Shown one piece after another: positions 4,983 to 62,216 of a stretch of DNA of 64,000 bases (position 1 is its first letter; each line of letters starts with the position of its first letter). Source of the stretch: Octopus vulgaris (taxonomy: Eukaryota); the NCBI GenBank assembly GCA_951406725.2, contig OX597815.1, forward strand, positions 137,640,001-137,704,000. The letters are read 5' to 3'. The notes under the pieces were generated by a model that had not been told where the DNA came from, ran no database searches, and worked only from the letters and a program-made list of their open reading frames with translations. Made by a program: the position numbers and the translations under genes.

Positions 4983-7900
4983 GATTGATTGATTGATTGA
5001 TTGATTCTAGTTTCAGCTTATGAGCCGTGGCCATGCTGGGGCACCGCCATTTGGTGTTGCTACTTGGTTTCACTTCATGGAGGCCCTCTAGCAACTGCTA
5101 CTTGGTGCATGAGAGAGTTCGATGCAGCTGCCCTCATCTGCCCCTCCTGCCGTGAAGTTGGTTCATCTGGGACACCTGACAGGAAGAGATCCAGCTTCAT
5201 TTTAAAGACATCTGTATCCACCCCATGCAGGTCTCTCAGGTTCTTCGGGAGGATATTGAAGAGCTGTGGGCCTCGGAAGCCCAGGCTATCACAGAATCTT
5301 GTCCTACATCTTGATGGCAGGTTTGGAGTCCTAGGCACCACGCAGTGGCGCCCAGTTCTGGCATTTGCGTAACTCTCGATGCCAAAGTTCAGGACACTTC
5401 CTCCAGGATCTTCCAGATGTATATTATGGCATATCTTTCCCGCCTACGCTCCAGGGAATATAATTTTAATCTCTTGAGTCTTTCCCAGTAGCTTACATTC
5501 TGCATAGAGGCTATCTTCTTTGTGTAGCTTCGTTGGATCGCCTCAAGTTCTGTGATCAACTTGACACTGGATGGTGACCATAGCTGAGAGCAATAGTCAA
5601 AGTGGCTTAGGACAAGTGTCTTCCAGAGGACCATCATGGTTTCTTGTTCTCTTGTTCTAAAGGTTCTAAGAATCCATCCAGCCAGCCGTCTACATTTCAT
5701 TGTCAGTTTAGCAACATGTACATGAAAGGTCGCGTCATCACTCATGTGAATACCCAGGTCACGCACTGATTGTGCCTCTGGGATTGCAATCCCTCCGGGT
5801 CCAGTGTATTCATTGGGTATTGCATTCAGTTTTGCATGCTGATAGTATAAAGCTTGAAACTTTCCAGCATTGAACTGCATGCTATTCTTTTCAGCCCACT
5901 TGTATATTTCGTCCAGCTCACATTGCAGGTGTTTAGTGTCCTCAGGGTTCTGTATTGCCTGTGAGACTTTTGTATCATCTGCATAACTTGTGATCGTGGC
6001 TCTCTGCGTGGCTGAGGGCATGTCTGAGAGGGCCATTATGAACAGTAGTGGTCCCAGAACAGTGCCCTGCGGAACACCGCTCACTATTTGTGTGTTAATG
6101 GAGGTGGCCCCATTGGCTACTACCACCTGACTTCTATCCTTCAGAAAGTCATGAAGCCATTCTCCCAGTTTTCCAACTATGTTGAGATCACGCAGTTTGT
6201 GACATATCATTCCATGATCGACTTTATCAAAGGCCTTTGCAAAGTCGAGATATATCACTTCCACATTTGAGTGGTTGAGCAGCCGTTTCAGCACCCAGTC
6301 ATAGTGTTGTAGGAGCTGAGTTAAACAGCTTCTCCCTGGTCGGAAACCATGTTGGGTGTCGGGCAGCAAGTCATTCTCTTCAAGGAAGGTGATCAGCTTC
6401 CTTCTGACTATTCGTTCCATGACCTTGCTGATGTGTGAGGTCAGAGAGATAGGTCTATAGTTCTTGGCTTCCGCTCTGCTACCTCCTTTATGAATGGGGC
6501 ATATTTTACCTTCCTTCAGTTTTCCTGGAAGTTTGCCAGCTGCAAGGAAGCTCTGAAAGAGGAACTGCAGTGGTCTTGCTAGGACTCTCTTACATGCTTT
6601 TAGGAGGATTGCCGGGAATCCATCGGGGCCAGTAGCTGAGTCTGTTTTCATTTCATCTATAGCCTTGGTTACATCGTCTTCCTTTATATCGATGTAATCT
6701 ATCGTCGCCGCCTCTGATTTTATATCTGCAGTGGTAAAAAAGTCAGTTGGATTGGTGATTTGGAGATGCCCAAGGGGTGGAGTGAAAACACTCTTGAATT
6801 GCTCATTCAGTATTTCACTTACCCTCATTGGTTTTCCTGTAAGTGTGCCATCCTTTTCGAGGAGTGGCCCTATTCTACAGTGCACTGTAGCTGTTTCTTT
6901 GGCATACCTGTAGAAAGCTCTGGGGTTAGATTTTATGTTTTCTATAGCCCAGGCTTCTTTGTCTGCTCTTTCTTTTTCATGGGAGAGTTGCAGACATTTT
7001 TCGATTTCCAACAGTTTTATTTTTAGGCGGGACTTTTCACTGCTTTCAATCTGTTTGTTTAGGCGATTTGAAAATTTTGTACGCCGTCTCATTAAAATTT
7101 TCCTCTCTCTGGGGATTTTGTTCTTGTGTACAGTGGCCTTTCTCTCTGGGACACATTTGTAGCATATGGCTTGCATTACAGACATGAATTGTTGAAGTTT
7201 CACGTCGATGTCTGGCGAGGAGAGACATTTAGGCCAGTTTTGTTTGAGGATCTCTTTCTCAATTTGTTTCCAGTTTGCCTTATGGTAGTTCAAGCTGGAA
7301 AGATTTTGAGGGTTTCTTGTAGGCTGCATGTCCGTGCTCTCTTTTGGCCCGTACATGGTCAGCTCTATCATGTTGTGATCCGAGAGTAGTGTCGGTGTCA
7401 CTTTCACATTATGGATGAGATCCATGTCATTTGTGAAGCAGAGATCCAGTGTGTTACCTGCCCTGGTTGGTTGGAGTATTACCTGCTCCATGTACAGGGT
7501 GTTGATGAGGTTCAGGAGGGACCTCGCCTGTCCTCGTTCACATCTTGTCATTCCTGGGAGAGAAAGGCCCTCGGGCCATCTGACATTGGGCAGATTGAAG
7601 TCTCCCATAAGAAGCACACCTATGTGTTGTTCTAATGTGGTTAGAATTTCTTCTATTTTTATAAGGCAGTCTTCAAACTTGCCCACATGGCTTGGGGCAT
7701 CTGGAGGCGATATGTAGCACACACAACTACATCAAGTTGCCTAATATGTACAATTAGTGTGTCACACACCGAGTTTGAGTATGACAAGAGGACCTGGGGT
7801 GTGAGGTCCTCACGGATGTACATAGCAACACCTCTGACTCCTTTCTTTCCTGTCGGTCCGTAGTACAGCATACTGTGGTATGTGTAACTCCGCATCTGCT

Positions 7901-8128
7901 ATGTCCGGTTTCAGGTGCGTTTCTGTAAGTGCTATGCATAAGGCTTGATTGCATGCAACAAAGTCTCTCAAGAACGGGATCTTTGTCCTGTTACTGAGTG
8001 TTTGCAGTCCTCTGATGTTCAGTAGGAGTATCGAGGTGAGGTGTACGTTGTTGCCGGCGGTGTCCATCCTGTGTCTGTTTGCTGTGGTGGTCTGGTATAT
8101 AGTGGGTAGTCCACCTGCGGGCTTGGGT

Positions 8129-8130
<2 letters not shown>
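4983..8130 (-). mobile_element. LINE family A copy A2; truncated in the ORF1/ORF2 overlap, ORF2 frameshifted
   Basis: EN motifs LLLNIRGL, LTETHL, GDFN, SDHN and RT YADD across ORFs 7810-8226, 7659-7895, 5389-7722 and 5075-5341; (AATC)n tail at 4983-5006. Confidence 0.96.
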
Positions 8131-8182
<52 letters not shown>

Positions 8183-8219
8183 GTATATATATATATGTGT
8201 ATATATATATATGTGTATA

Positions 8220-10480
8220 AATCCATTCATAATAAATTTTTTTAAGTAGTGTTGGTTTGCCACGTGGATATAGTTTTTAGTTCCATTTATTCTTTTTCTC
8301 CATTCATAATTTTAAATGACGTTTACTTTCCATGACGCGTATTCTTTTTTTACATAAGTTATTTCTATGGTAACGTAATTTTGGTTTGATTTTTTTAACG
8401 GCTAAGAATTTAATTTCACTTTATAATTTGAAACTGACTTGTAAGTATGTATTTTATTTATCCTTATGTCATATTGTTATTTTTGATATTCTGATTAATT
8501 ACGATGTATTTAATGTTTTTTTCATAGGAGTGTTTATGTATATGAGATTGTGTGTGAGTTTTTAGTTGTATAATTTATTTATCTGTATGAGTGTGGGTGT
8601 GTAAATATTGTTGTATATATCGAGTTTGGTGAGTATGTATATGCGTATATGTGAGGGAGTATATGTATCTGTGTGTGTGTGTGTGTTTTGCCTGTGTGTG
8701 TGTTTGTGTGTGAATGTGTATATGGGTTTGTTATTTAGGTTTTGGGATGTATGTGTTAATTTGTCTGTGTGTGGAGGGGGAGTGGATTTTGGTGTATATT
8801 GAGGTTTATAAGTTAGTATAGGTATGTGTGTATAAGTCGTGGGTCTGTGGTTTACGTGTGTGTATTTGTGTGTGAATGTTTAGGTTAGGGGGATTGCTAT
8901 ATAGGTTTGTTATGAGTTTAGCAAAGGGAGATTTTATCGTTATATGTTTTTAAGAGTTTTGGTTTATCATGGTTTTTTTGGAATTCGTGGTAATTTGTCT
9001 ATTTTCGATGTTGGTTGTTTTATTGCATTGTTTCATTCATAATTTTTGAGTGGTGTTCGCTTTTGCCACGTGATTATTATTTTTAATTCCATTTATTCCA
9101 TTTCTCCATTCATTAATTTAGAGATGTTCGTTTCTGGAGCGGTTATGCTTTTTATACATATGTTAAGTTCCTTGGTAAAGTAATTTTGTTCGTGTATATG
9201 TTGAGGCTTATATGTACTTGTGGGTGTGTGTGAGTGGGGTGGGTGTTTGTATTTGTTATGGGTGTGTGGTTTACATGTGTGTTTTTGTGTGTGAATGTAT
9301 AGGTTAAAGGGATTGCTATATAAGTATGTTATAGTGTTTAGTAAGGGAGGTTTTATCATTTCTGTTTTGTGAGTTTTAGCTTATCATGGTAGTTTTATAA
9401 AAGAATCCATTCATAATTTTTGTGTTTATTTGTCTGTGTGGGGTTGAGTGGGTTTTTGGAGTATATGTTGAGGTTTATATGTATGTATTGGTATGTGTAA
9501 GTGGTGTGGGTATTAGTATATGTCGTGGGTGTGTGGTTTACGTGTGTGTATTTGTGTGTGAATGTTTAGGTTAGGGGGGATTGCTATAGGTATGTTATAG
9601 AGTTTAGTAAGGAGATTTTATCATTATATGTTTTTGTGAGTTTTGGTTTATCATGGTAGGTTTGTTAAGGAATTCATGTAGTAATTTGTGTATATTTGCG
9701 ATGTCTGTTGTTTTATTGCATTGTTTCATTCATAATTTTTTAAGTAGTGTTCGTTTTACCAAGTGAATATAATTTTTAATTCCATTTATTCCATTTCTCC
9801 GTTCATAATTTTGAGTGATGTCCGTTTTCTAGAGCGTGAATGTGGGTTGTATGTGTGTGTGTGTGGGAGTATGAATAAGTATTGTGTTGAAGTTTTTAGC
9901 TATTTTATTTATTTTTATAGTTGCCTAGACGTTTTTATGTGTATGTATAGGGATATATATATAGGTGTGTGGTTTAGTGTATGTAGTTAGATATGGTTAT
10001 ATATAATTAGGTATATGTGTATGGGTGTATATATAGTTTATTATTATATTATTATTATTTTTGTTTTGTTTTATATTTTATATTTTATATTTTATATTTA
10101 ATTCTTGATAGGTTTATTTTAGTTTATATATTGTTTATATATTGATAATATATGGATTATATATGGGTTATATATGGATTATATATTTATATTTTTTCAT
10201 TCATACTTTAATTATTTTAAAATTATTATTTGTATATTTTAAAATATTGATATTTTAGATTGAAGTCCACCTGAAGATTGTCGATCAAGACAAGAAACGA
10301 TTGTAGTGGCGGTTTTTTTGACTATTTATTAAAATTTTATGTATTGATTAAGTCTTTCCTTGTTTGTTTTGCAAAATAGTGGTTTTGTCTCTAATAATAT
10401 TTTATAATATTTTACTATAAAATTGGATTTAATCCTAAATCTGATTTTTTTCCCTGTAAATTTGGATTTATTCCCTAATA
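8220..10480 (+). mobile_element. GT-rich, internally repeated non-coding element ending in a hammerhead ribozyme; probable Penelope-like UTR/pseudo-LTR
   Basis: Diverged repeats TCATTCATAATTTT..TCCATTTATTCCATTTCTCC at about 8222, 9033 and 9726; GTGTGTGAATGTTTAGGTTAGGGGGATTGCTAT-like units at about 8870, 9290 and 9555; ribozyme at 10267; flanked by TA tracts. Confidence 0.55.
10267..10309 (+). ncRNA. Minimal type I hammerhead ribozyme
   Basis: CCAC-CTGAAGA-TTGTC(GATCAA)GACAA-GAAAC-GATT-GTA-GTGG: stem I CCAC/GTGG, intact CUGANGA and GAAA core, 5-bp stem II, GUA cleavage triplet. Confidence 0.85.
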
Positions 10481-15038: not shown

Positions 15039-18000
15039 GGGACAGAGGCAAACCCAGGGACAGAGGCAAACCTAACGGTCCATATGCCAAAAAGGATGGA
15101 AACAAGCAGCGCACACGGGTATGTAGGTTCTACCTGAAAGGTGCCTGCCGGCATGGAGAGGAAGGTGCAGGCTGCCGCTTTGCACATCCGGGACCCTGCC
15201 GCAGAAACCAACCACCGAAGAGGAAATGGGATGGACCAGGCATCACCTGCCCCAAAACGGAGGTACGCAGATGTGGTGCGTACCACAAACCACCAACGTG
15301 TTGTTGAAAGGGCAGCTGCTGAGCAGGAATCTTTTTTGTGCATGGCACAAAAGATTGTACAGCAGCTAACCTGGCTCCATCAGGCTCAGGCTCGCAGATG
15401 GAACTGCCCACAGTTCACGAGACCGCCACAGCAGATGGACCCAGGGTGGACAACGCCGGCAACAGCATACACCTCACCTCGATGCTCCTACTGAACATCA
15501 GAGGTTTACTAACACACAGTAACAGGACAAAAGTCCCGTTCCTGAGAGACTTTGTCGCATGCAATCAAGCCTTATGCATAGCACTCACAGAAACGCATCT
15601 GAAACCGGACATAGCAGATGCGGAATTACATACCACAGTATGTTGTACTACGGACCGACAGGAAAGAAAGGAGTCATGGAGGAGTTGCTATGTACATCCG
15701 TGGGGACCTCACACCCCAGGTCCTTTTGTCATACTCAAACTCGGTGTGTGACACACTAATTGTACACATAAGGCAACTTGATGTAGTTGTGTGTGCTACA
15801 TATCGCCCTCCAGATGCCCCAAGTCATATGGGCAAGTTCGAGGACTGCCTTTTAAAAATAGAAGAAGTTCTAACCACATTAGAACAACACATAAGTGTAC
15901 TTCTCATGGGAGACTTCAATCTACCGAATGTCAGATGGCCCGAGGGCCTTTCTCTCCCAGGAATGACAAGATGTGAACGTGGACAGGCGAGGTCCCTCCT
16001 GAACCTCACCAACACCCTGTACATGGAGCAAGTATACTGCAACCAACCAGAGCAGGTAACACACTGGATCTCTGCTTCACAAATAATATGGATCTCATCC
16101 ATAATGTGAAAGTGACACCGACACTACTCTCGGATCACAACATGGTAGAGCTGACCATGTACGGGCCAAAAGAGAGCACGGACATGCAGCCTACAAGAAA
16201 CCCTCAGAATCTTTCCAGCTTGAACTTCAATAAGGCAAACTGGAAACAAATTGAGAAGAGATCCTCAAACAAAACTGGCCTGAATGTCTCTCCTCGCCGG
16301 ACATCGACATGATACTTCAACAATTCATGTCTGTAATGCAAGCCATATGCTACAAATGTGTCCCAGAGAGAAAGGCCACTGTACACAAAAACAAAATCCC
16401 CAGAGAGAGGAAAATTTTAATGAGACGGCGTACAAAAATTTCAAATCGCCTAAACAAACAAATTGAAAGTAGTGAAAAGTCCCGCCTGAAAATAAAACTG
16501 CTGGAAATTGAAAATTGTCTGCAACTTTCCCATGAGAAGGAAAGAGCAGACAAAGAAGCCTGGGCTATAGACAACATAAAAACTAACCCCAGAGCTTTCT
16601 ACAGGTATGCCAAAGAAACGGCTACAGTGCACTGTAGGATAGGGCCACTCCTTGAAAAGGATGGCACACTCACAGGAAAACCAATGAGGGTAAGTGAAAT
16701 ACTGAATGAACAATTCAAGAGTGTTTTCACTCCACCCCTTGGGCATTTCCAAATCAGCAATCCAACTGACTTCTTTACCACTGCAGATATAGAATCAGAG
16801 GCGGCGACGATAAGTTACATCGAGATAAAGGAAGACGATGTAATAAAGGCTATAGATGAAATGAAAATAGACTCAGCTACTGGCCCCGATGGATTCCCGG
16901 CAATCCTCCTAAAAGTATGTAAGAGAGTCTTAGCAAGACCACTGCAGTCCCTATTTCAGAGCTTCCTTGCAGCTGGCAAACTTCCAAGGGGACTGAAGGA
17001 AGGTAAAATATGTCCTATTCATAAAGGAGGTAGCAGAGCGGAGGCAAAGAACTACAGACCTATCTCTCTGACCTCACACATCAGCAAGGTCATGGAACGA
17101 ATAGTCAGAAGGAAACTAATCACCTTCCTTGAAGAAAATGACTTGCTGCCTGACACCCAACATGGTTTCCGACCAGGAAGAAGCTGCTTAACTCAGCTCC
17201 TGCAGCACTATGACTGGGTGCTGAAACAACTGCTCAACCACTCAAATGTGGAAGTCATATATCTCGACTTCGCAAAGGCCTTCGATAAAGTCGATCACGG
17301 AATGATATGTCACAGGCTGCGTGATCTTGGCATAGTTGGAAAACTAGGAGAATGGCTTCACGACTTTCTGAAGAATAGAAGTCAGGTGGTAGTAGCCAAT
17401 GGGGCCACTTCCATTAACACGCAAATAATGAGTGGTGTTCCACAGGGCACTGTTTTGGGACCACTACTGTTCATAATGGCCCTCTCAGACATGCCCTCAG
17501 CCACGCAGAGATCCACGATCACAAGTTATGCAGATGATACAAAAGTTTCACAGGCAATACAGAACCCTGAGGACACTAAAAACCTGCAATGTGAGCTGGA
17601 CGAAATATACAAGTGGGCTGAAAAGAATAGCATGCAGTTCAATGCTGGAAAGTTTCAAGCTTTATACTATCAGCATGCAAAACTGAATGCAATACCCAAT
17701 GAATACACTGGACCCGGAGGGATTGCAATCCCAGAGGCACAATCAGTGCGTGACCTGGGTATTCACATGAGTGATGACGCGACCTTTCATGTACATGTTG
17801 CTAAACTGACAGTGAAATGTAGACGGCTGGCTGGCTGGATTCTTAGAACCTTTAGAACAAGAGAACAAGAAACCATGATGGTCCTCTGGAAGACACTTGT
17901 CCTAAGCCACTTTGACTATTGCTCTCAGCTATGGTCACCATCCAGTGTCAAGTTGATCACAGAACTTGAGGCGATCCAACGAAGCTACACAAAGAAGATA

Positions 18001-18524
18001 GCCTCTATGCAAAATGTAAGCTACTGGGAAAGACTCAAGAGATTAAAATTATACTCCCTGGAGCGTAGGCGGGAAAGATATGCCATAATATACATCTGGA
18101 AGATCCTGGAGGGAAGTGTCCTGAACTTTGGCATCGAGAGTTACACAAATGCCAGAACTGGGCGCCACTGCGTGGTGCCTAGGACTCCAAACCTGCCATC
18201 AAGATGTAGGACAAGGTTCTGTGATAGCCTGGGCTTCCGAGGCCCACAGCTCTTCAATATCCTCCCGAAGAACCTGAGAGACCTGCATGGGGTGGATACA
18301 GATGTCTTTAAAATGAAGCTGGATCTCTTCCTGTCAGGTGTCCCAGATGAACCAACTTCACGGCAGGAGGGGCAGATGAGGGCAGCTGCATCGAACTCGC
18401 TCATGCACCAAATAGCAGCTGCTAAAAAGCCTCCATGAAGTGAAACCAAGTAGCAACACCAAATGGCGGTGCCCCAGCATGGCCACAGCTCATAGGCTGG
18501 AACTGGAATCAATCAATCAATCAA
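15039..18524 (+). mobile_element. LINE family A copy A3: ORF1 3' half with CCCH zinc finger plus frameshifted ORF2
   Basis: [23 protein letters not shown] at about 15122-15190; EN/RT pieces 15338-15751, 15618-16109, 16088-16312 and 16309-18438; (AATC)n tail. Confidence 0.96.
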
Positions 18525-20789
<2,265 letters not shown>

Positions 20790-23700
20790 CTACCCGGCAC
20801 TAGACGCACTACCATAGGCCAAAGCACGCATCCCACAATAACATCAACACCACCAAATAGTAAATCGAAATTCAAAACACACACAACTCGGAGTCCCAAA
20901 ATCTGCCGGTATTCCCAACGTGAGAGAACATGTCTGCTGAGTGACTGTCCCTTCACTCATCTTCCAGGGACCCGACGCACAAACAGAAACGGGGCTTCAA
21001 GCCAACACACAAACCTGAATAAAAATAAAAATAGAAACACACCATGCTGCAGTAATGCTGGTCCAGTCTTTTCAGGAAGACACAAAAACAACAACAACAA
21101 AAGTGGAAACTACAACCCTATCCAACAGTGCAACCACACCTCCAGCCAAAAACTGCTCCCTAAGCAGGAAAATTCTTTTTAGCCATGTTGAACATGGCAA
21201 AAGAGATACACAAAAACATTCTAACCATCACTCAACACCATCCTATGCTATTACCCCAGTGCACCAATTCCCCACATTGCTGCCACTAACACACACAAAA
21301 AATCCAAGCCCCCTGCAACAGTCAAAACCAGCCACTACACTAACCTCCACATTCCTACTCAATGCACAAGGTGTCAGCCCTTCCATCAATGCACAAAAAT
21401 GGAAGGTCCAATTCATTGAAGACTGGGTTGGTAACCATTCACACCACATCCCTTTCTTCATTCTCACCGAGACCCACCTTGACAACTCCCACTTGGAAGC
21501 CGAAGTGAGAGTGAAGAATTTCACAACCATCCGTGCGGATCGTATCGGCAGGAGGAAGGGTGGAACTGCCATTTTCCTGCATGATTCAATTACGGCAGAT
21601 GGAAATAGTATATTCTCCAACGGCTACTGTGAATCAGTCACCGTGCACAACAAAGCCAATGACCTGACAGTAATTGGGCTCTATAGGCCGCCCCAAACAC
21701 CCATACTGTGCTTTAAAGAATGCCTCAACAGCATTAAGTGCTTTATTCAACAGTGCCATTCTAGCAACATACTCATGATGGGAGACTTCAATCTACCCTG
21801 TGTTGACTGGACTACAAACTGTTTGAAACCAAGCACTCCTGCCTCAACCGCTGACAAAGAAGCAGCAGAGTCACTTTTCGACTTTACGAATGAGTTTTTC
21901 TTGTCCCAACTTGTCCTTGCACCAACAAGACATCAGAACATTTGGGACCTAGTGTTTAGTAACCACACTAACACTATACATAACGTTACAGTGGAAAAAA
22001 CCCTTCTTTCAGACCATGACATGGTTCTCTGTAACATGAAATTCCACCAGCCGAAAGCTAATCCTAGTGACCTTCCTCCAGCCCACCCATTTGACAACAT
22101 GGATCTCCATAATGCCAACTGGGATGCAATCAGGAACGAGCTATCACATGTTGACTGGTCCTTTACACATACACACATCTCCACCAACCATAAAACATCT
22201 TGGCAGATCTTTGTAGATACCGTCACAGACATATGTGCAAAACACTCCCCACCAAGACCTGTGAACAAAAAGTGCAGAATCCCCCAAAATAGAAAAACCA
22301 TTATCAGAAAAATAAAAAGAACAAACAAAAAAATTAACAAACTAAAGTACTGCCAACAGCAACACACACATTCGACGGCTACCGCACTGCTTGAATCCAA
22401 AAAATATAACCTCCAACAATGCATGAAGACCCTCATCAATAACCAAAGATCAGCTGAGGAGAAGTGGGCCATTGAAAAAATCAAACTCAACCCCAAAGTG
22501 TTCTTTTCATTTGCGAGGAAACGCAGGGTCACTGTCTCCACTGTAGGCCCTCTAATTGACAAAACTGGCACTCTCCAAGATAATGCCAAATCCATGGCCG
22601 AGATACTGCAGAAACAATACTGCTCTGTTTTCAGCAATCCTGATATGGCCGATCTGGGCTGTATCAGTGATGTCAACCCCCAACACACTATATCGGACAT
22701 AACGTTTAGTGCCCCTGATGTCTTAGCGGCGATAAACGAAATAAAACACAATTCAGCAGTAGGCCCCGATAGGTTCCCTGCTTGTGTCCTGAAGGTGTGT
22801 CGACACCAACTTGCATCTCCCCTTGCTAATCTGTGGAGAAACTCACTGGATGCTGGCTATATTCCAAAAAACCTTCTGTCCCAGTCTGTTGTCCCAGTTT
22901 TCAAAAAGGGAAACAAGTCCCTTGCAATGAATTACCGTCCGATCTCACTCACCTCTCATATCATCAAGGTATTTGAGAGGGTGGTGAGATCTCGAATAAC
23001 CCAATTTCTGGAAAGCAACAGATGGCTGATCTCCAACCAACATGGGTTCCGTAATGGAAGGGACTGCCTAACGCAGCTCCTGCATCACTTTGAGGACATT
23101 TTGAGAGCTTTGGGAGAGGGCTCCAACACCGATGTCATCTACCTTGATTTCAGTAAGGCCTTCGACAGGGTCGATCACAAGATCCTATTGAAAAAACTAT
23201 CCAACATTGGTGTCTCTGGAAAGTTACTGAAATGGATCAAGTGTTTCCTGACAGACAGATCTCAACATGTTGTAGTTGAAGGGGTAAAATCAAGCCCAGC
23301 CAAAGTCAGTAGTGGCGTTCCGCAAGGCACTGTGCTGGGCCCACTTCTTTTCATCATTTACATTAATGACATTAATGACATCATCAAGCACAGCAACATA
23401 AAAATCTTTGCAGATGACTCCAAGCTACAGAAGGTCATAAATGAGGCGAGTGACCGGACATGCCTTCAGTCAGATCTACTGGCTGTTATCCAATGGGCAG
23501 AAAAAAACAATATGCTGCTGAACGAGGATAAATTTGAGCTAATCCACTTTGGAAAAGAGGATGCCCTGAAACTCCCATACTCCCTTCCTTCAGGTGAAAC
23601 TCTCGCGGCGTCCAACAACATCAGAGACCTGGGAGTAATTGTGGACAACAACATAAGCTGGGCCACTCATATAAACACCAAAGTTGACATGGCCCGCAGA

Positions 23701-24384
23701 ATGTGTTCCTGGATTCTCAGAACTTTCCAGTCGAGAGATATCCACACCATTATCCTTCTCTTCTCCACTTTTGCCCGACCCCACCTTGAATACTGTTGTC
23801 CACTGTGGTCTCCCCACAATACAAGGTATCATAAAAGTTGAAGCACCTCAAAGGGCAATCACAAAAAAGATAGATGGCATGACAGGCCTCGACTATTGGG
23901 GTCGACTAGAAAAGCTAAAACTCTATTCTCTCCAACGTCGTCGTGAGCGCTACATCATCTGCATGATGTGGAAAATATTCCATCAGCATTGCCCAAATGA
24001 TGTTGGCATCACCTTTAAGGTACATCCAAGGCTTGGGCCCCGTGCCATCCGCCCAAAACAAAAAATCGCACTCTCATCTCATAACAACAATACGGCACAA
24101 TTATTTCACCTGAATTGGCCCCGCTCTCTTTAACATTACACCAAAACACATTAAAACAGAAACTGACCCTATAGGGTTCAAGAAGTCTTTGGACAGATTC
24201 CTTCAAGAAATCCCGGATAAACCCCCTACACCCGGATATGTCTCTGTAAACAATAACTCTCTACTTGAGTGGGCCATAGTGCCTAAATTCTGACTTGAAA
24301 GACTTCACCAGGTGGTGCTATTAAGTTAGACATGGCCTGGGCCAATAATGGCTGAAACCTATCAAAGTATCAAAGTAAAGTATC
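20790..24384 (+). mobile_element. LINE family B copy B1 (distant sister of family A): ORF1 remnant with CCCH finger plus EN/RT ORF2
   Basis: [26 protein letters not shown] at 20901; ORF 21055-23841 with FLLNAQG, LTETHL, GDFN, SDHD, GVPQGTVLGP, FADD; 3' frameshifts; (ATCAAAGT)n-like tail. Confidence 0.95.
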
Positions 24385-24549
24385 ATACATACATACATAT
24401 ATACATACATACATATATATATATACATATATACATACATACATATATATATACATACATACATATATATACATACATACATACATATATATACATACAT
24501 ACATAAATATATATACATACATACATAAATATATATACATACATACATA

Positions 24550-36864: not shown

Positions 36865-37722
36865 CTAGCAGAATGTTGCCAGCTCTGGACTCTCGGCGTT
36901 GCTCGGGGCTGAATTGCTTGAAAGTACTGTTAATGATTGCACTGAATTATGATGATTATTCAGGCAAATATTGATATAAGTTTACGGTGGGAGATAAGGA
37001 CTTAACGATCAAACGTGTGCCATTGCATTGTTTTGGGGGAACCAAATTTCTGATGAGCATTATAGGGGCACCAACTTTAAGTTTGAGAAAGTGTGGTGGT
37101 AGTCCGGGGTGCTCAAAGGAATTGAGTACCTCTATTGGATAGTTGATGACGTCCTCTGGGTCAGGAGTTGTATCGATAGACTGATATACATAGACTTCCC
37201 CAGGAATGAGTTTTAGCATTTCATCATTAATATGGTGAACAGTTTTATTCCTCGGGGCCAGTATAGCCTTTTGGCCAATCCAATCCATATTCTGATAATT
37301 AGCTTGTAGATCTGGGAACACTGCATCTCTGAGATCAGAAGGCGTCTTAACAATGTTACAAATGGAATCGATGGCAATATTACCATTTTCATCCTCTGGT
37401 ATTTTGCCTTCGCCAAGTGCAAGGAGGGTGTGAGGAAATGCTGCTGATGTGATATTACGTTGCATATGAGCACGCATATTGGTGTGAAGTTTGAGAGTTA
37501 CTTCCCTTTATTTAAAAAAATATGCATTAAAATGGAAAAAATGATGGTAAATTATTTGTAAAATCATCAACTCATCGTAGACGCGCGCTAATACCCAGAA
37601 GGGCTCGATATGAATCACGACTATAAGATACCCAGTTTTGGTTAAACTGCATCGCAAAATGTGGGAGTAGTTAGGAATCTAAATCGGAGTAGACAGACAC
37701 ACAACCTTTCTTTTATATATAA
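36865..37722 (-). mobile_element. Non-autonomous Helitron with a PIF1-type helicase fragment (36956-37500)
   Basis: NMR..AILAPRN..PPHFLKLKVGAPIMLIRNL..CNGTRL; 3' CTAG followed by T at 36865 with an upstream GC-rich CCGAGCAACGCCG motif; 5' end resembles TCTATATATAAAAG. Confidence 0.85.
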
Positions 37723-41013: not shown

Positions 41014-41318
41014 CTGTAATAAGATAAGATATGATAAAATAATATCAATAATAACTGTTTCTAGCATAGACACAGAGTCAGAAATTTGAGGGATAGGGTT
41101 CAATTTACTTAACAACACTTTATATTACTGATCCCCACAAAAGGATGAAAAGAAAGATAAAGAGCTAGAAGAAATTTTATAAGATATTTTATTGACTGCT
41201 CTAACAATTCCACCAATTCACCCATCAAAATAATAACGACAATAATTTTTTCTACTATAACCACAAGGCCTGAAATGTGTGGGGAGAAGGATAGCTGACT
41301 GCATCAACCCCTGTATAC

Positions 41319-41355
<37 letters not shown>

Positions 41356-41358
<3 letters not shown>

Positions 41359-44322
41359 ACATGTTGGACGGCATGTCGGGGGCTTCCATGGCGTTCATGG
41401 AGGCTACGGTTTTGGCTCTCGTAATGAGGAGGGAACCAGGTTGCTGGAGTTCTGCGATGCAAATGACCTTATGGTCTGCAATACCAACTTCAGGAAACCC
41501 ACCTCTCACCTAGTCACCTACCGTTCTGGCAGACACACTAGCCAGATTGACTACAACCTTGCCAGAAAAAGGGAAAGAGGGCTGCTTATAAATGCCAAAA
41601 CCTTTCCAGGCGAAGAAAGTACTCCTCAACATAGATTAGTAATTAGCGACTTCAGGATCAGAGCTAAATGGTTGCCCAGAAGAAGACCAGCTTGGAAGAG
41701 AAGGGTCTGGAAGCTTAAAGATCCTGCAAATGGACAGAGATTTAGAGACATACTACTCGAAGCCTTTGACGAAATAGAAGGGGATATAGCTTCACTTAAT
41801 GTGGAAGACAACTGGAGATTTCTACGGGACAATCTGCTGTCAGCCACTGACCAGATCTGTGGATGGAGCAAAGTACCATCTCGACCCAGAGTAACGTGGT
41901 GGTGGAACACTGTGGTTGACAGGGCTATTAGACAAAAGAGACAAGTTTGGAAGGACTGGAAGAACGGTGGTAGCAGGGAATTGTATCAGACAGCCAGAAG
42001 GGAAGCTAGGAGACAGGTTTATTTAGCCAGAGGGGAAGCGGATAAGAAAAAATTTGCCAATGTTCTGAGCCGTGAGGATGAAAGACTTGAGGTATTTCGT
42101 GTTGCAAGACAGTGTGTGAGAGAGAATCGTGATGTGGTAGGAGAGAAATGTGTCCGCATGGATGATGGTTCACTTGCGCTAAATGAGGATGCAAAGAGAG
42201 AGTTAAAGCAATTAGAAGCATGAAGACAGGGAAAGCCCCAGGCCCATCAGGAATTACTGCAGAGATGCTCAAAATATCTGGCAGTGTCGGCTATAACCTA
42301 GTCACCCGTATAGTCAACCAGGTGATACACGAAGGAGTCATATCCAATGACTGGTGTAGCAGCATATTAGTCAACTGCTACAAAGGTAAAGGTGACGCCC
42401 TAGATACAAATAATTACAGATGTATCAAGCTGTTGGATCAGGTAATGAAGTTTACGGAGAGGGTCATAGCCCAACTAATTAGAGAGAGAGTTAGTTTAGA
42501 TGAGATGCAGTTTGGGTTCGTGCCAGGGAAAAGTACCACTGATGCTATATTCCTGGTAAGGCAGCTGCAGGAGAAATACCTAGCCAAAGATAAGACCCTG
42601 AACCTGGCTTTCGTTGACATGGAGAAAGCCTTTCACAGGGTCCCCCGATCCCTTATCTGGTGGTCAATGAGGAAACTAGGGATAGATGAATGGCTGGTGA
42701 GGGCTGTGCAAGCCATGTACAGAGATGCCGTAAGTAAGGTTAGGGTTGGCAACATGTACACAGAAGAATTCAAAGTAGAGGTTGGGGTCCACCAGGGTTC
42801 AGTACTCAGCCCCCTCCTATTTATCATAGTCCTCAAGGCAATTACGGAGGAATTCAAGACAGATTGCCCCTGGAAGCTCCTCTATGCTGATGACCTTGCT
42901 CTAATTGCTGAGTCACTATCAGAACTGGAGGAGAAGTTCCAGGTGTGGAAGGAGGGTTTAGAATCGAGGGGCCTTAGAGTCAACCTAGCTAAAACCAAAG
43001 TACTAATAAGTAGGAAGGTAGACAATCCACAAATGTCTTCAGGAAGATGGCCCTGCTCGATCTGTAGAAAAGGTGTAGGTAGAAACTCTATAAGATGCAC
43101 CAAGTGTAAGCTATGGACACATAAGAGGTGCAGCAATGTCAAAGGTAGGCTAACTGGGAAGATAGTTTTTGTATGTGGCAGATGCTCGGGAGCATTAACC
43201 TCCGAAAATCTTCAGAAAACAACTTCTGTCACTTTCCAGGGGGAAAAAATAGAAGTAGTTGATAGCTTCCGTTATCTAGGTGACCAAGTCAGTAGTGGGG
43301 GTGGGTGCATTGAAAGTGTAACTGCTAGAATAAGAATAGCCTGGGCAAAGTTTAGGGAGCTCTTACCTCTGCTGGTGACTAAAGGCCTCTCGCTCAGAGT
43401 AAAAGGCAGACTGTATGATGCATGTGTACGAACAGCCATGCTACATGGCAGTGAAACATGGGCCGTGACTGCTAAGGACATGCGTAAGCTCGCAAGAAAT
43501 GAAGCCAGTATGCTCCGATGGATGTGTAATGTTAGTGTACATACTCGACAGAGCGTTAGTACCCTGAGAGAAACGTTGTACCTAAGAAGCATCAGGTATG
43601 GTCATGTGGCGAGAATGGATGAAGATAGGTGTGTGAAAAAGTGCCAATCCCTAGCAGTTGAGGGAACCCGTAGAAGGGGTAGACCCAGGAAAACCTGGGA
43701 CGAGGTGGTAAAGCACGACCTTCGAACTTTAGGCCTCACTGAGGAAATGACCAGCGACCGAGACCTTTGGAAATATGCTGTACATGAGAAAACCAGGCAG
43801 GACAAGTGAACCCAACCCACTTATGCATGCCTTTCCTCCCTTGGACACAAAGACCTGTTGAGGCAAGCGAAGTCGATATCGAACCTCATCCGACGACAGG
43901 CACCCATGCCAACCCCCTTTGCTTGCAAAGACATGTTGGGGCAAGTGAAATCGAAATCGGAATCGAAATTGAACTGGCACTCGGCAGATGCCAGGACCCC
44001 TGGACTGGTGGTACGTAAAAAGCACTATCCGAATCGTGGCCGATGCCAGCGCTGCCTCGACTGGCTTCCGTGCCGGTGGCACGTAAAATGCACCAATCCA
44101 ACCGTGGCTATTGCCAGCCTCGCCTGGCACCTGTGCGGGTGGCACGTAAAAAGCACCCACTACACTCACGGAGTGGTTGGCGTTAGGAAGGGCATCCAGC
44201 TGTAGAAACATTGCCAGATAAGACTGGAGCCTGGTGCAGCCTTCTGGCTTCCCAGATCCCCGGTCGAACCGTCCAACCCATGCTAGCATGGAGAACGGAC
44301 GTTAAACGATGATGATGATGAT
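41356..44322 (+). mobile_element. RTE-clade LINE, 5'-truncated, with an internal deletion/frameshift near 42200; EN, RT, PHD finger and 3' UTR
   Basis: GHVG..RNEEGTRLLEFC..SQIDY (EN); QFGFVPGKSTTDAIF, GVHQGSVLSPLLF, LYADD (RT); ORFs 41279-42223 and 42220-43809; (GAT)n tail running into TA. Confidence 0.96.
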
Positions 44323-46227: not shown

Positions 46228-46727
46228 CTCAGCCCCTCAATCTCTCTAAATATATAGACGCAAACATTATAAGTACAGTCGCAATTAGAAGAAAACGTTT
46301 GTAGCTACGGTCAGGTATATATATTTATAATTTACATCCTGTTAATAATCTTTCATTTTCTATTTCAGCTTTCCTGTTAATAATCTTTCATTTTCTATTT
46401 CAGCTTCGTAACCTCTTCTCTTTCTTTTCTTTCTCTCTGTCTCTTCACTTCTCTCTATCACACCATCTTTCTTCTTTCAGCCGTTCAATCTTTCCTTGTC
46501 TCTTCACTTCTCCACTTCTCTCCATCACACCATCTTTCCTCTCTCAGCCTCTCAATTTTTCTAAATATATAGTGGCGAACTTTCTTCTCTTACTCTCTTC
46601 TTATCTTCTCTCAGCTCTAAATCTCTCTAAATACATAAACACTTTCTTTCTCTATTTCTTTTCTACCCTCTATCACGCTATTAAATTTCAAATATAATTA
46701 GATAGATAAATAAATAAAATATCCAAA
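45945..46727 (+). promoter_or_regulatory. Putative repeat-built 5' UTR/promoter of LINE copy A6
   Basis: Two ~115-140 bp units each containing a TA tract; TCAGC..AATCTCTCTAAATA-like motif about 4 times; duplicated TTAATAATCTTTCATTTTCTATTTCAGCTT; lies directly upstream of ORF1. Confidence 0.45.
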
Positions 46728-47651
46728 ATGTCCAGAACCTGGAGAAGTAACGAATTGGCGTTGTTCCTGAGAGCCTGGCAATGCGCCGACGGAGATAATC
46801 CGAACAACATAATTACAGCTGCGCTGAAGAACAGTGGATATGAAAGAACAATAGTTCAGATAGAGCGAAAGAAGCAGGAGTTTATACGCTCCTATGCACT
46901 CATAAGATCTCACATTGGCACGCTTGATGCCATCTTTGACAACGAACAAAGTAAAGATGGGAAGGATGGAGACGCGGGTGCTGATGAAAGAAGTCACCCC
47001 CACTTGGTAGACACCCAGGAAGAAGATTCAAGTGAGAAACCTGCCTGGGAGGTAAACCCAAGTGCAAGTGCTCCTACCAGCACCAAAAGCCATAGAGATG
47101 AAAGAGTCAAAAAAGAAATAAAAGGAGGAAAAACTAAAAGAAAAACAAAAGATGAAACAGCCAAAGAAGGAAAAACTAAAACTCAAACAAAACCAAAAAG
47201 TGAAACAGCCAAGGATAGAAGCAAACCTGACTATCCATGTACCAAAAAGGATACAATCAGAAAGTGCACACGAATGTGTAAATTCTACCTGAAAGGTGTC
47301 TGCTGGCATGGAGAGGAAGGTGCAGGCTTCATAAGACCCTCCACAAACATGAAACAGGTCTGAAATGAACTACCAAAAGGAAAAGGAATGGACCACGCAC
47401 CACCTGCCCCAAAACGGAGGTACGCAGATGCGGTGCGTGCTACAAACCGCCAACATATCATTGAAAGGGCAGCTGCTGAACAAGAATCTTTTTTGTGCAT
47501 GGCACAAAAGATTGTACAGCAGCTAACCTGGCTCCATCAAACTCAAGCTCGCAGATGGGACTATCCACAATATACAAGACCACCACAACAAATAGACCCA
47601 AGGTGGACACTGCCGGCAACAGCATACACTTCACCTCGATGCTCCTACTGA
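46728..47651 (+). pseudogene. LINE ORF1: Myb/SANT-like N-terminus, Lys-rich linker, damaged CCCH finger; in-frame TGA at 47361
   Basis: ORFs 46728-47363 and 47388-47651 share a frame; TWRSNELALFLRAW..ITAALKNSGYERTIVQIERKKQEFIRSY fits the trihelix Myb/SANT pattern; the 3' half is homologous to A3. Confidence 0.75.
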
Positions 47652-50599
47652 ACATCAGAGGACTGCAAACACTCAGTAACAGGACAAAAATCCCGTTCTT
47701 GAGAGACTTTGTTGCATGCAATCAAGCCTTATGCATAGCACTTACGGAAACGCACCTGAAACCGGACATAGCAGATGCGGAATTACACATACCACAGTAT
47801 GTTGTACTACGGACCGACAGAAAAGAAAGGAGTCATGGAGGAGTTGCTATGTACATCCGTGAGGACCTCACACCCCAGGTCCTTTTGTCATACTCAAACT
47901 CGGTGTGTGACACACTAATTGTACATATAAGGCAACTTGATGTAGTTGTGTGTGCTACATATCGCCCTCCAGATGCCCCAAGCCATGTGGGCAAGTTTGA
48001 AGACTGCCTTATAAAAATAGAAGAAGTTCTAATCACATTAGAACAACACATAAGTGTACTTCTTATGGGAGACTTCAATCTACCCAATGTCAGATGGCCC
48101 GAGGGCCTTTCTCTCCCAGGAATGACAAGATGTGAACGAGGACAGGCAAGGTCCCTCCTGAACCTCATCAACACCCTGTACATGGAGCAAGTAATACTCC
48201 AACCAACCAGGGCAGGTAACACACTGGATCTCTGCTTCACAAATAATATGGATCTCATCCATAATGTGAAAGTGACACCGACACTACTCTCGGATCACAA
48301 CATGGTAGAGCTGACCATGTACGGGCCAAAGGAAAGCATGGACATGCAGCCTACAAGAAACCCTCAGAATCTTTCCAGCTTGAACTTCCATAAGGCAAAC
48401 TGGAAACAAATTGAGAAAGAGATCCTCAAACAAAACTGGCCTGAATGTCTCTCCTCGCCAGACATCGATGTGAAACTTCAACAATTCATGTCTGTAATGC
48501 AAGCCATATGCTACAAATGTGTCCCAGAGAGAAAGGCCACTGTACACAAGAACAAAATCCCCAGAGAGAGGAAAATTTTAATGAGACGGCGTACAAAAAT
48601 TTCAAATCGCCTAAACAAACAAATTGAAAGCAGTGAAAAGTCCCGCCTGAAAATAAAACTGTTGGAAATTGAAAAATGTCTGCAACTCTCCCATGAAAAG
48701 GAAAGAGCAGACAAAGAAGCCTGGGCTATAGACAACATAAAATCTAACCCCAGAGCTTTCTACAGGTATGCCAAAGAAACAGCTAAGGTGCACTGTAGGA
48801 TAGGGCCACTCCTTGAAAAGGATGGCACACTCACAGGAAAACCAATGAGGGCAAGTGAAATACTGAATGAGCAATTCAAGAGTGTTTTCACTCCACCCCT
48901 TGGGCATTTCCAAATCACCAATCCAACTGACTTCTTTACCACTGCAGATATAAAATCAGAGGCAGCGACGATAGATTACATCGATATAAAGGAAGACGAT
49001 GTAATAAAGGCTATAGATGAAATGAAAACAGAATCAGCTACTGGCCCCGATGGATTCCCGGCAATCCTCCTAAAAGTATGTAAGAGAGTCCTAGCAAGAC
49101 CACTGCAGTTCCTCTTTCAGAACTTCCTTGCAACTGGCAAACTTCCAAGAAAACTGAAGGAAGGTAAAATATGCCCTATTCATGAAGGAGGTAGCAGAGC
49201 GGAGGCCAAGAACTACAGACCTATCTCTCTGACCTCACACATCAGCAAGGTCATGGAACGAATAGTCAGAAGGAAACTAATCACCTTCCTTGAAGAAAGT
49301 GACTTGCTGCCTGACACCCAACATGGTTTCCGACCAGGAAGAAGCTGCTTAAATCAGCTCCTACAACACTATGACTGGGTGCTGAAACGACTGCTCAACC
49401 ACTCAAATGTGGAAGTGATATATCTCGACTTTGCAAAGGCCTTTGATAAAGTCGATCATGGAATGATATGTCACAAACTGCGTGATCTTAGCATAGTTGG
49501 AAAACTGGGAGAATGGCTTCATGACTTTCTGAAGGATAGAAGTCAGGTGGTAGTAGCCAATGGGGCCACTTCCATTAACACGCAAATAGTGAGCGGTGTT
49601 CCACAGGGCACTGTTTTGGGACCACTACTGTTCATAATGGCCCTCTCAGACATGCCCTCAGCCACGCAGAGAGCCACGATCACAAGTTATGCAGATGATA
49701 CAAAAGTTTCACAGGCAATACAGAACCCTGAGGACACTAAACGCCTGCAATGTGAGCTCGACAAAATATACAAGTGGGCTGAAAAGAATAGCATGCAGTT
49801 CAATGCTGAGAAGTTTCAAGCTTTATGCTATCAGCATGCAAAACTAAATGCAATGCCCAATGAATACACTGGACCCGAAGGAATTGCAATCCCAGAGGCA
49901 CAATCAGTGCGTGACCTGGGTATTTACATGAGTGATGACGCAACCTTTCGTGTACATGTTGCTAAATTGGCAATGAAATGTAGACGACTGGCCGGATGGA
50001 TTCTTAGAACCTTTAGAACAAGAGAACAAGAAACCATGATGGTCCTCTGGAGGACACTTGTCCTAAGCCACTTTGACTATTGCTCTCAGCTATGGTCACC
50101 ATCCAGTGTCAAGTTGATCACAGAACTTGAGGCGATCCAACGTAGCTACACGAAGAAGATAGCCTCTGTGCAGCATATAAGCTACTGGGAAAGACTCAAG
50201 AGATTAAAACTATATTCCTTGGAGCGTAGGCAAAAAAGATATGTCATAATATACATCTGGAAGATCCTGGAAGGACTTGTCCCAAACTTTGGCATCGAGA
50301 GTTACACAAATGCCAGAACTGGGCGCCACTGTGTGGTGCCAAGGACTCCAAATTTGCCATCAAGATGTAGGACAAGATACTGTGATAGCCTGGGCTTCCG
50401 AGGCCCACAGCTCTTCAATATCCTCCCGAAGAACCTAAGAGACCTGTATGGGGTGGATGCAGATGTCTTTAAAATGAAACTGGATCTCTTCTTGTCAGGT
50501 ATCCCAGATGAACCAACTTCACGGCAGGAGGTGCAGATGAGGGCAGCTGCATCGAACTCTCTCATGCACCAAATGGCAGTTGCTAAAAAGCATTCGTGA
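47495..50599 (+). CDS. LINE ORF2: APE endonuclease plus reverse transcriptase, uninterrupted (1034 codons)
   Basis: NIRGL, ETHL, YRPP, GDFN, LDL, SDHN; NYRPISLTS, QHGFR, YLDFAKAFD, GVPQGTVLGP, YADD. Confidence 0.95.
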   Translation: MHGTKDCTAANLAPSNSSSQMGLSTIYKTTTTNRPKVDTAGNSIHFTSMLLLNIRGLQTLSNRTKIPFLRDFVACNQALCIALTETHLKPDIADAELHIPQYVVLRTDRKERSHGGVAMYIREDLTPQVLLSYSNSVCDTLIVHIRQLDVVVCATYRPPDAPSHVGKFEDCLIKIEEVLITLEQHISVLLMGDFNLPNVRWPEGLSLPGMTRCERGQARSLLNLINTLYMEQVILQPTRAGNTLDLCFTNNMDLIHNVKVTPTLLSDHNMVELTMYGPKESMDMQPTRNPQNLSSLNFHKANWKQIEKEILKQNWPECLSSPDIDVKLQQFMSVMQAICYKCVPERKATVHKNKIPRERKILMRRRTKISNRLNKQIESSEKSRLKIKLLEIEKCLQLSHEKERADKEAWAIDNIKSNPRAFYRYAKETAKVHCRIGPLLEKDGTLTGKPMRASEILNEQFKSVFTPPLGHFQITNPTDFFTTADIKSEAATIDYIDIKEDDVIKAIDEMKTESATGPDGFPAILLKVCKRVLARPLQFLFQNFLATGKLPRKLKEGKICPIHEGGSRAEAKNYRPISLTSHISKVMERIVRRKLITFLEESDLLPDTQHGFRPGRSCLNQLLQHYDWVLKRLLNHSNVEVIYLDFAKAFDKVDHGMICHKLRDLSIVGKLGEWLHDFLKDRSQVVVANGATSINTQIVSGVPQGTVLGPLLFIMALSDMPSATQRATITSYADDTKVSQAIQNPEDTKRLQCELDKIYKWAEKNSMQFNAEKFQALCYQHAKLNAMPNEYTGPEGIAIPEAQSVRDLGIYMSDDATFRVHVAKLAMKCRRLAGWILRTFRTREQETMMVLWRTLVLSHFDYCSQLWSPSSVKLITELEAIQRSYTKKIASVQHISYWERLKRLKLYSLERRQKRYVIIYIWKILEGLVPNFGIESYTNARTGRHCVVPRTPNLPSRCRTRYCDSLGFRGPQLFNILPKNLRDLYGVDADVFKMKLDLFLSGIPDEPTSRQEVQMRAAASNSLMHQMAVAKKHS

Positions 50600-58270: not shown

Positions 58271-58800
58271 CTACAAGAACAAGACTGCAGCAGGCCAACA
58301 TTTCTTGCTGTGGGCCATCGTGCATTCATCCCAAACGATAAGCTTGCATCGTCTGAAGACTTCTGCCTGATCGGAGCTGTTACTGATGTTGCAAGTTGGT
58401 GTCTCAGTCTTCGCTAAGACAAGTGGAAGCTTGAAAGTGGAGTGAGCTGTCCTGCCGCCTGGCAACAAAGTAGCTGCAATTCCAGATGATGCCACAGCTA
58501 GGGCAATGCCTTGTGTTTGCCTAATCTCAGCCAATATTAATTTGTTGACAAAATTTTTCCCAGTGCCCCCAGGAGCATGCAGGAAAAAAATCCTCCCAGT
58601 TTTGGCCCGGACAGAATTAACAACGGAGTTGTAAGCGAACTTGTGTTCTGGAAGGAACTTTGGTTCATTGTCGGCTATGTACTCGGCAAGCTCATCAACA
58701 TTAAAACATGTCTCACACAGCAAATGTGAAGACAGAGTGTTTGTGCCTTCCCGGTTTGTTGAACGTAGGCCATAGATCGGCAAAGCACTACCGCCCATAT
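58271..58800 (-). mobile_element. Helitron RepHel helicase fragment (PIF1 family)
   Basis: Walker A APGGTGK, AVASSGIAATLLPGGRTAHSTFKLP, Walker B LIVWDE. Confidence 0.88.
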
Positions 58801-59039
58801 CAAGTACAGTATCTTCGAACGTAGTTTGTTACCACGCAGCCACACCTGCCCCTATGTATGTGTGTGTGTGTGTGTACGTGTGTGTGTATGGGTAGATATA
58901 TTATGCATGTATATATGTGTATATATATATGTGTACATATTACATGTACATCTATATATATATATATATATATACATCTACACATAAAATACAAAATACA
59001 AAGTTATATCTTGATATCACTAGTGATAACAATACTCAA

Positions 59040-62197: not shown

Positions 62198-62216
62198 ATA
62201 TATCAATCATATATAT

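Follow-up and report, generated by a model that had tools for sequence, protein, structure and literature searches.

−1 ribosomal frameshifting is established in retroviruses and in many LTR elements, and HeT-A is described as using a frameshift in gag (PMC5009743). The shift site of HIV-1 is U_UUU_UUA, and passage through it by the Phe-Leu or the Phe-Phe route is reported to depend on the supply of Leu-tRNA (PMC6547452). For non-LTR elements (LINEs), the routes to ORF2 translation covered in reviews are reinitiation, IRES and 2A (PMC2881922, PMC10275272, PMC3894237), with reinitiation (L1, SART1) and 2A skipping as the worked examples given, and the translation of LINE ORF2 is called an open question in one of these reviews (PMC3894237). 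SART1, with its UAAUG coupling, and human L1 are described as having a bicistronic mRNA and a low output of ORF2 that depends on the translation of ORF1 (PMC2881922, PMC10275272, PMC3894237). Among APE-type non-LTR elements, TRE5-A and TRE3-A of Dictyostelium are stated in a review to need a −1 frameshift for ORF2 (PMC5911963); they are amoebal, they target tRNA genes, and it is through that review's statement that they are likened to the elements treated here. In the literature searched, outside which lay most subscription papers and the Repbase entries, no report of frameshifting in animal CR1-type LINEs was found.

This analysis concerns a LINE family, termed B, represented in a stretch of 64,000 nucleotides from Octopus vulgaris (contig OX597815.1, positions 137,640,001 to 137,704,000; hereafter the window). 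Family B shares with HIV-1 gag-pol (PMC6547452) the heptamer U_UUU_UUA in the Phe-Leu phase, a downstream ORF in the −1 frame, an upstream protein with RNA-binding zinc fingers, and a downstream reverse transcriptase (RT). Unlike that of HIV-1, its heptamer belongs to a non-LTR host element, is followed by no conserved stem-loop after a spacer, and lies inside a hairpin in families A, B and D; the family also has no protease, and a fusion protein would remain in one piece unless cleaved by host enzymes. SART1 and L1 restart at or past the ORF1 stop and make separate proteins, whereas in octopus families A to D the ORF2 frame is open upstream to the heptamer. With LINEs of the CR1/L2 lineage (Jockey group), as described in PMC4120745, family B has in common an ORF2 with APE endonuclease and RT, a short tandem-repeat tail and 5′ truncation. 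Its ORF1, with Myb/SANT-like and CCCH matches, is unlike the ORF1 types described there: “CCCH” and “Myb” have no occurrence in the text passages of that paper, nor has “frameshift” in the text passages of PMC4120745, PMC11203168 and PMC9115989.

The ORF1-ORF2 junction of family B

The window contains, on the forward strand like every feature given below, a 5′-truncated family B copy set in a TA-rich microsatellite (20786..24385), delimited by its flanks and by an alignment to an intact copy (L034) that extends from 376 nt upstream of the junction through the 3′ tail. Family B presumably belongs to the CR1/L2 lineage, a label taken from its RT motifs. Intact ORF1s of the family encode about 409 amino acids, with a Myb/SANT-like N-terminal part and CCCH fingers, the first of which scores weakly on Pfam zf-CCCH_2. 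Throughout families A to D, the Pfam matches of ORF1 are Myb/SANT-like and CCCH, all below the curated cut-offs, and none of the domains of the described ORF1 types I–IV (RRM/CCHC, PHD, esterase) was found in these ORF1s by Pfam.

The 3′ remnant of ORF1 in the window (20786..21182; the frame itself spans 20766-21182) includes, by translation, the second CCCH-type finger (C-x8-C-x4-C-x3-H, 20904..20960), and is closed by a TAG at 21180-82 that is owed solely to a run of five T; six-T copies continue to a TAA at 21287-89. The original prediction, made from the letters of the DNA, had described the junction as CAG GAA AAT TCT TTT TAG, with a five-T run and a TAA at 21161, and this layout is borne out (TAA 21161-63, T 21176-80, TAG 21180-82). 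It had further proposed that one added T would give U_UUU_UUA: natural six-T copies, which read QENSFLAMLNMAKEI..., do carry this heptamer, found one T short at 21176..21181 in the window, and their ORF2 (−1) frame is shut by the TAA at 21161..21163, four codons before the run. The predicted coordinates are right, with two refinements: FLLNAQG, placed at 21361, begins at 21352, 21361 being the codon of its Asn, and the finger, placed at 20901, begins at Cys 20904, 20901 being Ile.

The ORF2 frame from the run to the endonuclease motif forms a linker (21181..21351) that was predicted to have no Met, and indeed family B has no AUG there; the first ATG of the ORF2 frame past the run is at 21775, within the endonuclease domain. 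ORF2 proper (21352..24293), with an APE endonuclease and an RT (Pfam PF14529, PF03372, PF00078), is disrupted in the window, where 2 nt are missing near 23815 and one extra nt is present near 24060. It is followed by a 32-nt 3′ UTR core, identical across families B, C and D (24309..24340), and by a short tandem-repeat tail of the TATCAAAG type (24359..24385). A comparison of frames in five-T and six-T copies places the ATG at 21055..21057 in the ORF2 frame solely in the former, and it is no start of the family. The ORF start at this position had been taken for a probable artefact of a single lost T; it is a by-product of that loss, but the loss is no one-off and affects about a third of B copies.

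One-base loss at the T run

Exact pattern matches in the genome yielded 315 family B junctions, 209 with six T, 100 with five and 6 with seven. Six T is the working form of the family, because the five-T copies form no lineage, a duplicate assembly of the same insertion has six T, and so do contigs from public runs. A five-T consensus with a conserved upstream AUG for ORF2 was looked for in family B and not found. Twenty six-T and twenty five-T copies, made up of the first ones among the matches listed and of the neighbouring copy L050, were compared. ORF2 (1,037 codons) is intact in 6/20 six-T copies vs 8/20 five-T copies, and private substitutions (0.09% in five-T vs 0.16% in six-T copies, p 1.0) indicate equal age. 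On a 40-copy tree, from which one 19%-diverged copy was excluded, the five-T label changes 13 times, vs 13.6 with shuffled labels. A five-T subfamily was rejected, since the SNP common to the first 30 loci is the majority allele and five-T and six-T copies are mixed across the tree; with it was rejected a lineage that now used a +1 shift at UUU_UAG, or started at the AUG of 21055, because the five-T copies form no lineage.

A general homopolymer error was likewise rejected, as twelve other runs of 6-7 nt show a one-base loss in just 12/448 copy-sites, far below the 32% at the junction, so that the loss of T is specific to this site (the control runs are of A or C, family B having no second T6 run). 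By family, the loss amounts to 32% in B, 19% in A (19/100 among the matches listed), 7% in C (4/59) and 1% in D (1/100 among the matches listed), and seven-T copies occur in every family (6/315 in B, 1/59 in C, and, among the matches listed, 3/100 in A and 2/100 in D). The loss is commonest where the run forms one side of a strong hairpin; a strict dependence of T loss on hairpin energy was rejected, as energies of −16 (B), −9.3 (A), −1.4 (C) and −4.7 to −6 (D) kcal/mol leave C and D in swapped order.

The first part of the window (1-23264) recurs 28 kb upstream, in a duplicate whose end coincides exactly with a 100-N scaffold gap. With microsatellites set aside, 66 substitutions and 140 indel columns separate the two versions over 15.8 kb, and these versions look like two assemblies of one locus, or alleles. 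The upstream version has six T at the B site, and its A site has five T against six in the window; such disagreement between duplicate assemblies of one insertion points to error. The sixth T is also found in contigs from four public runs that cross the site (25,258/25,438 summed depth in X3, a spanning contig in X9, single contigs in X5 and X1), which drop variants and are possibly from related species, and thus lend support, not proof. The five-T form of the window is fairly likely to be a systematic assembly error at a hairpin-bound run. Long reads are known to err by calling too few bases in long homopolymers (PMC8486125). Slippage of the reverse transcriptase at insertion is a more doubtful source of the five-T form, and a later mutation an unlikely one. 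HIV RT is reported to add a base at U6A in vitro in 1.4% and to omit one in 2.1% (PMC5737442). Such slippage (PMC5737442, PMC5737552) resembles the present case in that a single base is lost or gained at a motif also used for ribosomal slippage, but the omission of about 2% in vitro compares with 32% of B copies in the octopus assembly.

The junction codons in other families and in distant ORF1 relatives

Genome searches with two foreign endonuclease queries (genome size, 2.8 Gb) found families C, C′ and D beside A and B. The junction codons are TCT TTT TTA in B, C, C′ and D, and TCT TTT TTG in A. In the ORF1 frame (X_XXY_YYZ), the heptamer is U_UUU_UUA in the 209 B copies and in C and D, and U_UUU_UUG in A (47489..47495 in the window, with a second copy at 15332-15338); it is absent in the five-T window copy. 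The slippery layout, originally proposed as common to A and its sister family B, is thus conserved far beyond these two, with the qualification that in A the heptamer ends in G (U_UUU_UUG) and the linker holds two Met codons. ORF2 identity is 80% between B and D, 62-65% between C and these two, and 38-39% between A and the rest, and fourfold sites are 30-39% identical between A, C and B/D, which is near saturation, and 64% identical, unsaturated, between B and D. Judged by these sites, the four families in the genome are three synonymously saturated lineages, all of which keep TCT TTT TTR. Given Ser-Phe-Leu, the junction codons have a probability of 0.017-0.035 per family, and the other x-Phe-Leu in the four ORF2s use them in 0/22 cases.

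Measured from the run, the Leu-Asn of the endonuclease lies 53 codons away in A, 61 in B, 44 in C, 72 or 76 in C′ and 55 in D, and in each family it is reached in the −1 frame. Over these 44-76 codons the −1 frame has no stop in 10/10 representatives of A, B, C, C′ and D, and the third frame has 1-5; upstream of the ORF1 stop, the ORF2 frame is open for 32-54 codons, back to the slippery heptamer. With the ORF1 protein held fixed, an open −1 overlap has a chance probability of 0.10-0.47 per family, and its openness alone is weak evidence. The nearby upstream stop was rejected as evidence, being expected by chance: the −1 frame of ORF1 has 26 stops in 372 codons, or about one per 14.

More distant relatives were gathered with the finger-to-end part of the family C ORF1 as query, which gave 1,660 clusters (50% identity) at E 0.001 or better. 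Among the best 150 of these 1,660, Phe-Leu follows the last finger in 130, at a median of 73 residues from the end, and opens a helix-like stretch; it is absent in 20/150, several of these proteins being incomplete. A weak PHD match is also seen in distant relatives. The residue before Phe (n = 130) is S in 34, D in 34, H in 12, T, N and P in 10 each, A in 7, G in 5, I and Y in 3 each, and F and L in 1 each. Q, E, K, M and W are the residues that have no U-ending codon; they stand before Phe-Leu in 0/130, vs a background of 28% in the same tails, a result that indicates a U- or C-ending codon, not U itself, and that includes a few first Phe-Leu matches which are not the junction motif (e.g., P0008, P0099, P0103). 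In control positions of the same proteins, these residues make up 29/100 (before Phe-Leu upstream of the fingers), 8/24 (before a later Phe-Leu) and 44/130 (one position earlier), i.e., 29-34%. The motif x-Phe-Leu-Glu/Asp resembles a helix capping box, and N-capping could favour S, D, T and N; helix capping accounts for part of the preference for these four residues before Phe-Leu. When they are left out, Q, E, K, M and W still number 0/37, against 39% expected.

In two predicted proteins of other data sets, P0099 and P0156, the fingers are followed by Phe-Phe-Arg, some 100 open residues and then the endonuclease motif, as would be expected of a fused ORF1-ORF2 copy; the frame next to that of the P0099 peptide could encode the ORF1 helix of P0061. 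Searches for DNA of relatives from other animals gave one unrelated-looking LINE (L091) in metagenome contigs and none in viral contigs.

Translation of ORF2

In B, the U run makes up the 5′ arm of a predicted hairpin (21174..21206; upper stem GCCAUGU/ACAUGGC; −16 kcal/mol; z −2.3 to −4.8 depending on the stretch folded). This hairpin is weaker in A and D and absent in C, and a compensatory pair sets its B and D forms apart (GCC/GGC vs GCU/AGC). Since it begins at spacer 0, this hairpin is no classical stimulator, and the strong B form would be opened by the ribosome. The freed 3′ arm could pair further on, in an alternative stem-loop predicted for family B only (21187..21236), a candidate stimulator that starts 5 nt past the heptamer (−10.3 kcal/mol; z −4.0 over 54 nt and −1.9 over 74 nt on copy L038, in a stretch chosen after the fact). 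It sits in the majority allele of B, 54/72 matches having one haplotype; 8 carry 21224A, the allele of the window, which breaks one pair. In A, C, C′ and D, stem-loop prediction found no 3′ structure at a spacer of 5-9 nt (z −0.5 to +1.1), and no 3′ stimulator appears to be conserved across the families. A 12-nt duplex between the B junction and the 3′ tail beats 18/18 control windows; long-range pairing with the tail was rejected, as no such pairing occurs in C and D despite their identical tail core, and the duplex would start at spacer 0.

The conserved codons argue that a −1 ribosomal frameshift on U_UUU_UUA probably yields an ORF1-ORF2 fusion. Working copies would present six U at the junction, where most ribosomes would read ORF1 through Ser-Phe-Leu and the helix and stop at the TAA at 21287, 37 codons later. 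A minority would slip back one base on U_UUU_UUA and pass through a flexible linker into the endonuclease and RT, producing a Gag-Pol-like fusion, presumably at low yield. As no stimulator is conserved, the heptamer may act with little or no RNA stimulator; in B alone, the stem-loop at a 5-nt spacer could form once the ribosome had opened the hairpin that covers the site. The trans-frame peptides expected from such a slip are ...QENSFLSHVEHGK or ...QENSFFSHVEHGK. Against the frameshift stand the AUGs in the linkers of A, C, C′ and D, and family A with UUG in the A site.

Counted in codons from Leu-Asn, these AUGs lie at −31 and −3 in A, −19 in C, −47 or −51 in C′ and −25 in D. The AUG of D is 7 nt before the ORF1 stop (CAC ATG CCA T-TAA), and A has one at 10 nt (ATG CTC CTA C-TGA). 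Family B has a CUG at the place of the D AUG and a UUG one codon earlier, near-cognate codons of the ORF2 frame 7 and 10 nt upstream of the ORF1 stop of six-T copies (TTG CTG CCA C-TAA, 21277..21289, in 69/69 matches, their loci partly overlapping). The original claim that ORF2 would be reachable only by frameshifting was therefore too strong, given these codons and the lack of a conserved stimulator. A ribosome that ended ORF1 and restarted a few bases back (on CUG/UUG in B, on AUG in D and A) would make a free ORF2 protein, a mechanism reported for SART1 and human L1 (PMC2881922, PMC10275272). Yet C′ reads TTA or CTA in place of the CUG and has only a UUG beside its stop; C has lost the region, and its ORF1 stop coincides with the endonuclease motif and has no usable start nearby. 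In A, the Met closest to the endonuclease is preceded by LTS, residues shared with B and C, so that translation of A seems to start further upstream than that Met. Nor does termination-reinitiation account for the conserved heptamer, for its phase or for the 0/130 result, and we consider it unlikely; it could act beside frameshifting, and may hold for some families.

The seven-T copies of every family, among them L090 with a fused frame of 1,327 codons, and the slippage of HIV RT at U6A in vitro (PMC5737442) would suit a polymerase origin of the fusion, in which RNA polymerase or the RT of the element adds a U or T and seven-U templates encode ORF1 and ORF2 in one frame. Such slippage is nonetheless quite improbable: it needs no X_XXY_YYZ phase, yet the run is in phase in all families, and seven-T copies are rare, may be errors too, and are outweighed by losses. 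That the U run and an AG form a splice acceptor joining an upstream AUG exon to ORF2 is very hard to credit. B and D do read TTCTTTTTTAG or CTCTTTTTTAG, and the residue after Leu is E, D, G, V or A, with G-starting codons, in 93/130 relatives, but neither A (TTTTTTGTG) nor C (TTTTTTACTG) has an AG there, and splicing of a LINE mRNA would leave internally deleted copies, of which no joint at the site was seen in a 361-nt stretch (contigs only). There is as little to recommend the absence of recoding altogether, a reading in which the ORF1 helix (N-cap) dictates Phe-Leu and the preceding residue, the U run is incidental and ORF2 starts by another route. The helix of the ORF1 frame is kept as protein (FLAMLNMAKEI, FLAIMNLAKEL, FLLTYLENMKADL), and S, D, T and N account for 88/130 preceding residues; however, H, P, A, I and Y are tolerated (35/130) while Q, E and K are absent, and the TCT TTT TTR codons persist in three saturated lineages.

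Frameshifting at the heptamer is thus the reading retained here, and we lean slightly towards its broader form. A whole animal LINE clade with a CCCH-finger ORF1 (1,660 clusters at 50% identity) would, much like retroviruses, express its endonuclease-RT fused to ORF1, by means of a bare U_UUU_UUA slip unaided by any fixed RNA stimulator, its output could follow the supply of Leu-tRNA(UAA), and part of the five-T and seven-T copies may record the element's own RT slipping on the run. The slippery junction is a real feature of the family, seen in the window through a defective or mis-assembled copy. Gene callers place the ORF2 start wrongly at such junctions, and the one-base loss at the run, in about a third of B copies in the assembly, makes ORF2 look like a separate frame with an AUG of its own upstream. 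The conserved site of HIV type, found in a large animal LINE clade, offers a short, exact cassette for testing, and, if the fusion is true, ORF2p would be tethered to ORF1p, which would be a simple way to achieve cis preference and to hold the ORF2:ORF1 ratio at a fixed low value.

Length variation of the junction run

The T run at the ORF1/ORF2 overlap lies at 21176–21180 in the family B copy of the window and at 15332–15337 and 47489–47494 in two copies of family A. Loss of one T from this run varies by family, reaching 32% in B and 7% in C and, among the matches listed, 19% in A and 1% in D, and its frequency across families agrees roughly with the hairpin that surrounds the run. This family-dependent loss could possibly reflect either systematic sequencing error or a record of slippage by the reverse transcriptase (RT). 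Copies with seven Ts account for ~2–3% of each family (for A and D, among the matches listed); in one such B copy (L090, G000:C1:166989000-166996000), a single frame of 1,327 codons spans ORF1 and ORF2. The A6 run of B (CC-A6-CC; 22866–22871) lacks one base in 6 of 41 copies, a loss commoner than at the remaining A runs of this family.

Elements of the window and a stretch present twice

At least five copies of family A occur within these 64 kb (1165–2439, 5389–8226, 15040–18438, 46710–50599, and 60057–63889). Nearly all of them, and likewise the B copy, are bordered by a TA-rich microsatellite, which suggests either targeting of such repeats or accumulation there. Another LINE (41261–43809), broken and unlike A and B, has an RT that we take from its motifs to be RTE-like, and two minus-strand fragments (36956–37507 and 58271–58828) presumably derive from a Helitron, their motifs resembling a PIF1-type helicase. 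About 25 kb exist in two versions on either side of a 100-N scaffold gap (window 1–23264 and G000:C2:137611872-137635038, loci L071–L073); they differ mainly by small indels and probably represent ends of contigs that overlap and were falsely duplicated.

ORF1 termini, linker and 3′ UTR core

Two ORF1 relatives from other data sets (P0156 and P0157) carry near their N-terminus a motif, …EPNPGP, that we assume to be 2A-like, followed by a PHD-like region and then the CCCH fingers. At the opposite end, ORF1 of families B, C′ and D, like that of their close relatives (window 21271–21289; P0006, P0007, P0008), has C-x-H or CCH just ahead of its stop; this ending may represent a conserved terminal motif or else a nucleotide signal. 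Comparison of loci L112 and L179 with L145 and L133 indicates that C is derived from C′ via an in-frame deletion of ~30 linker codons, which took away the ORF1 stop, so that ORF1 of C now ends on the endonuclease motif. Although C has almost reached saturation relative to B/D at the fourfold sites of ORF2, families B, C, and D share exactly the same 32-nt core of the 3′ UTR (window 24309–24340), a candidate recognition element for the RT.
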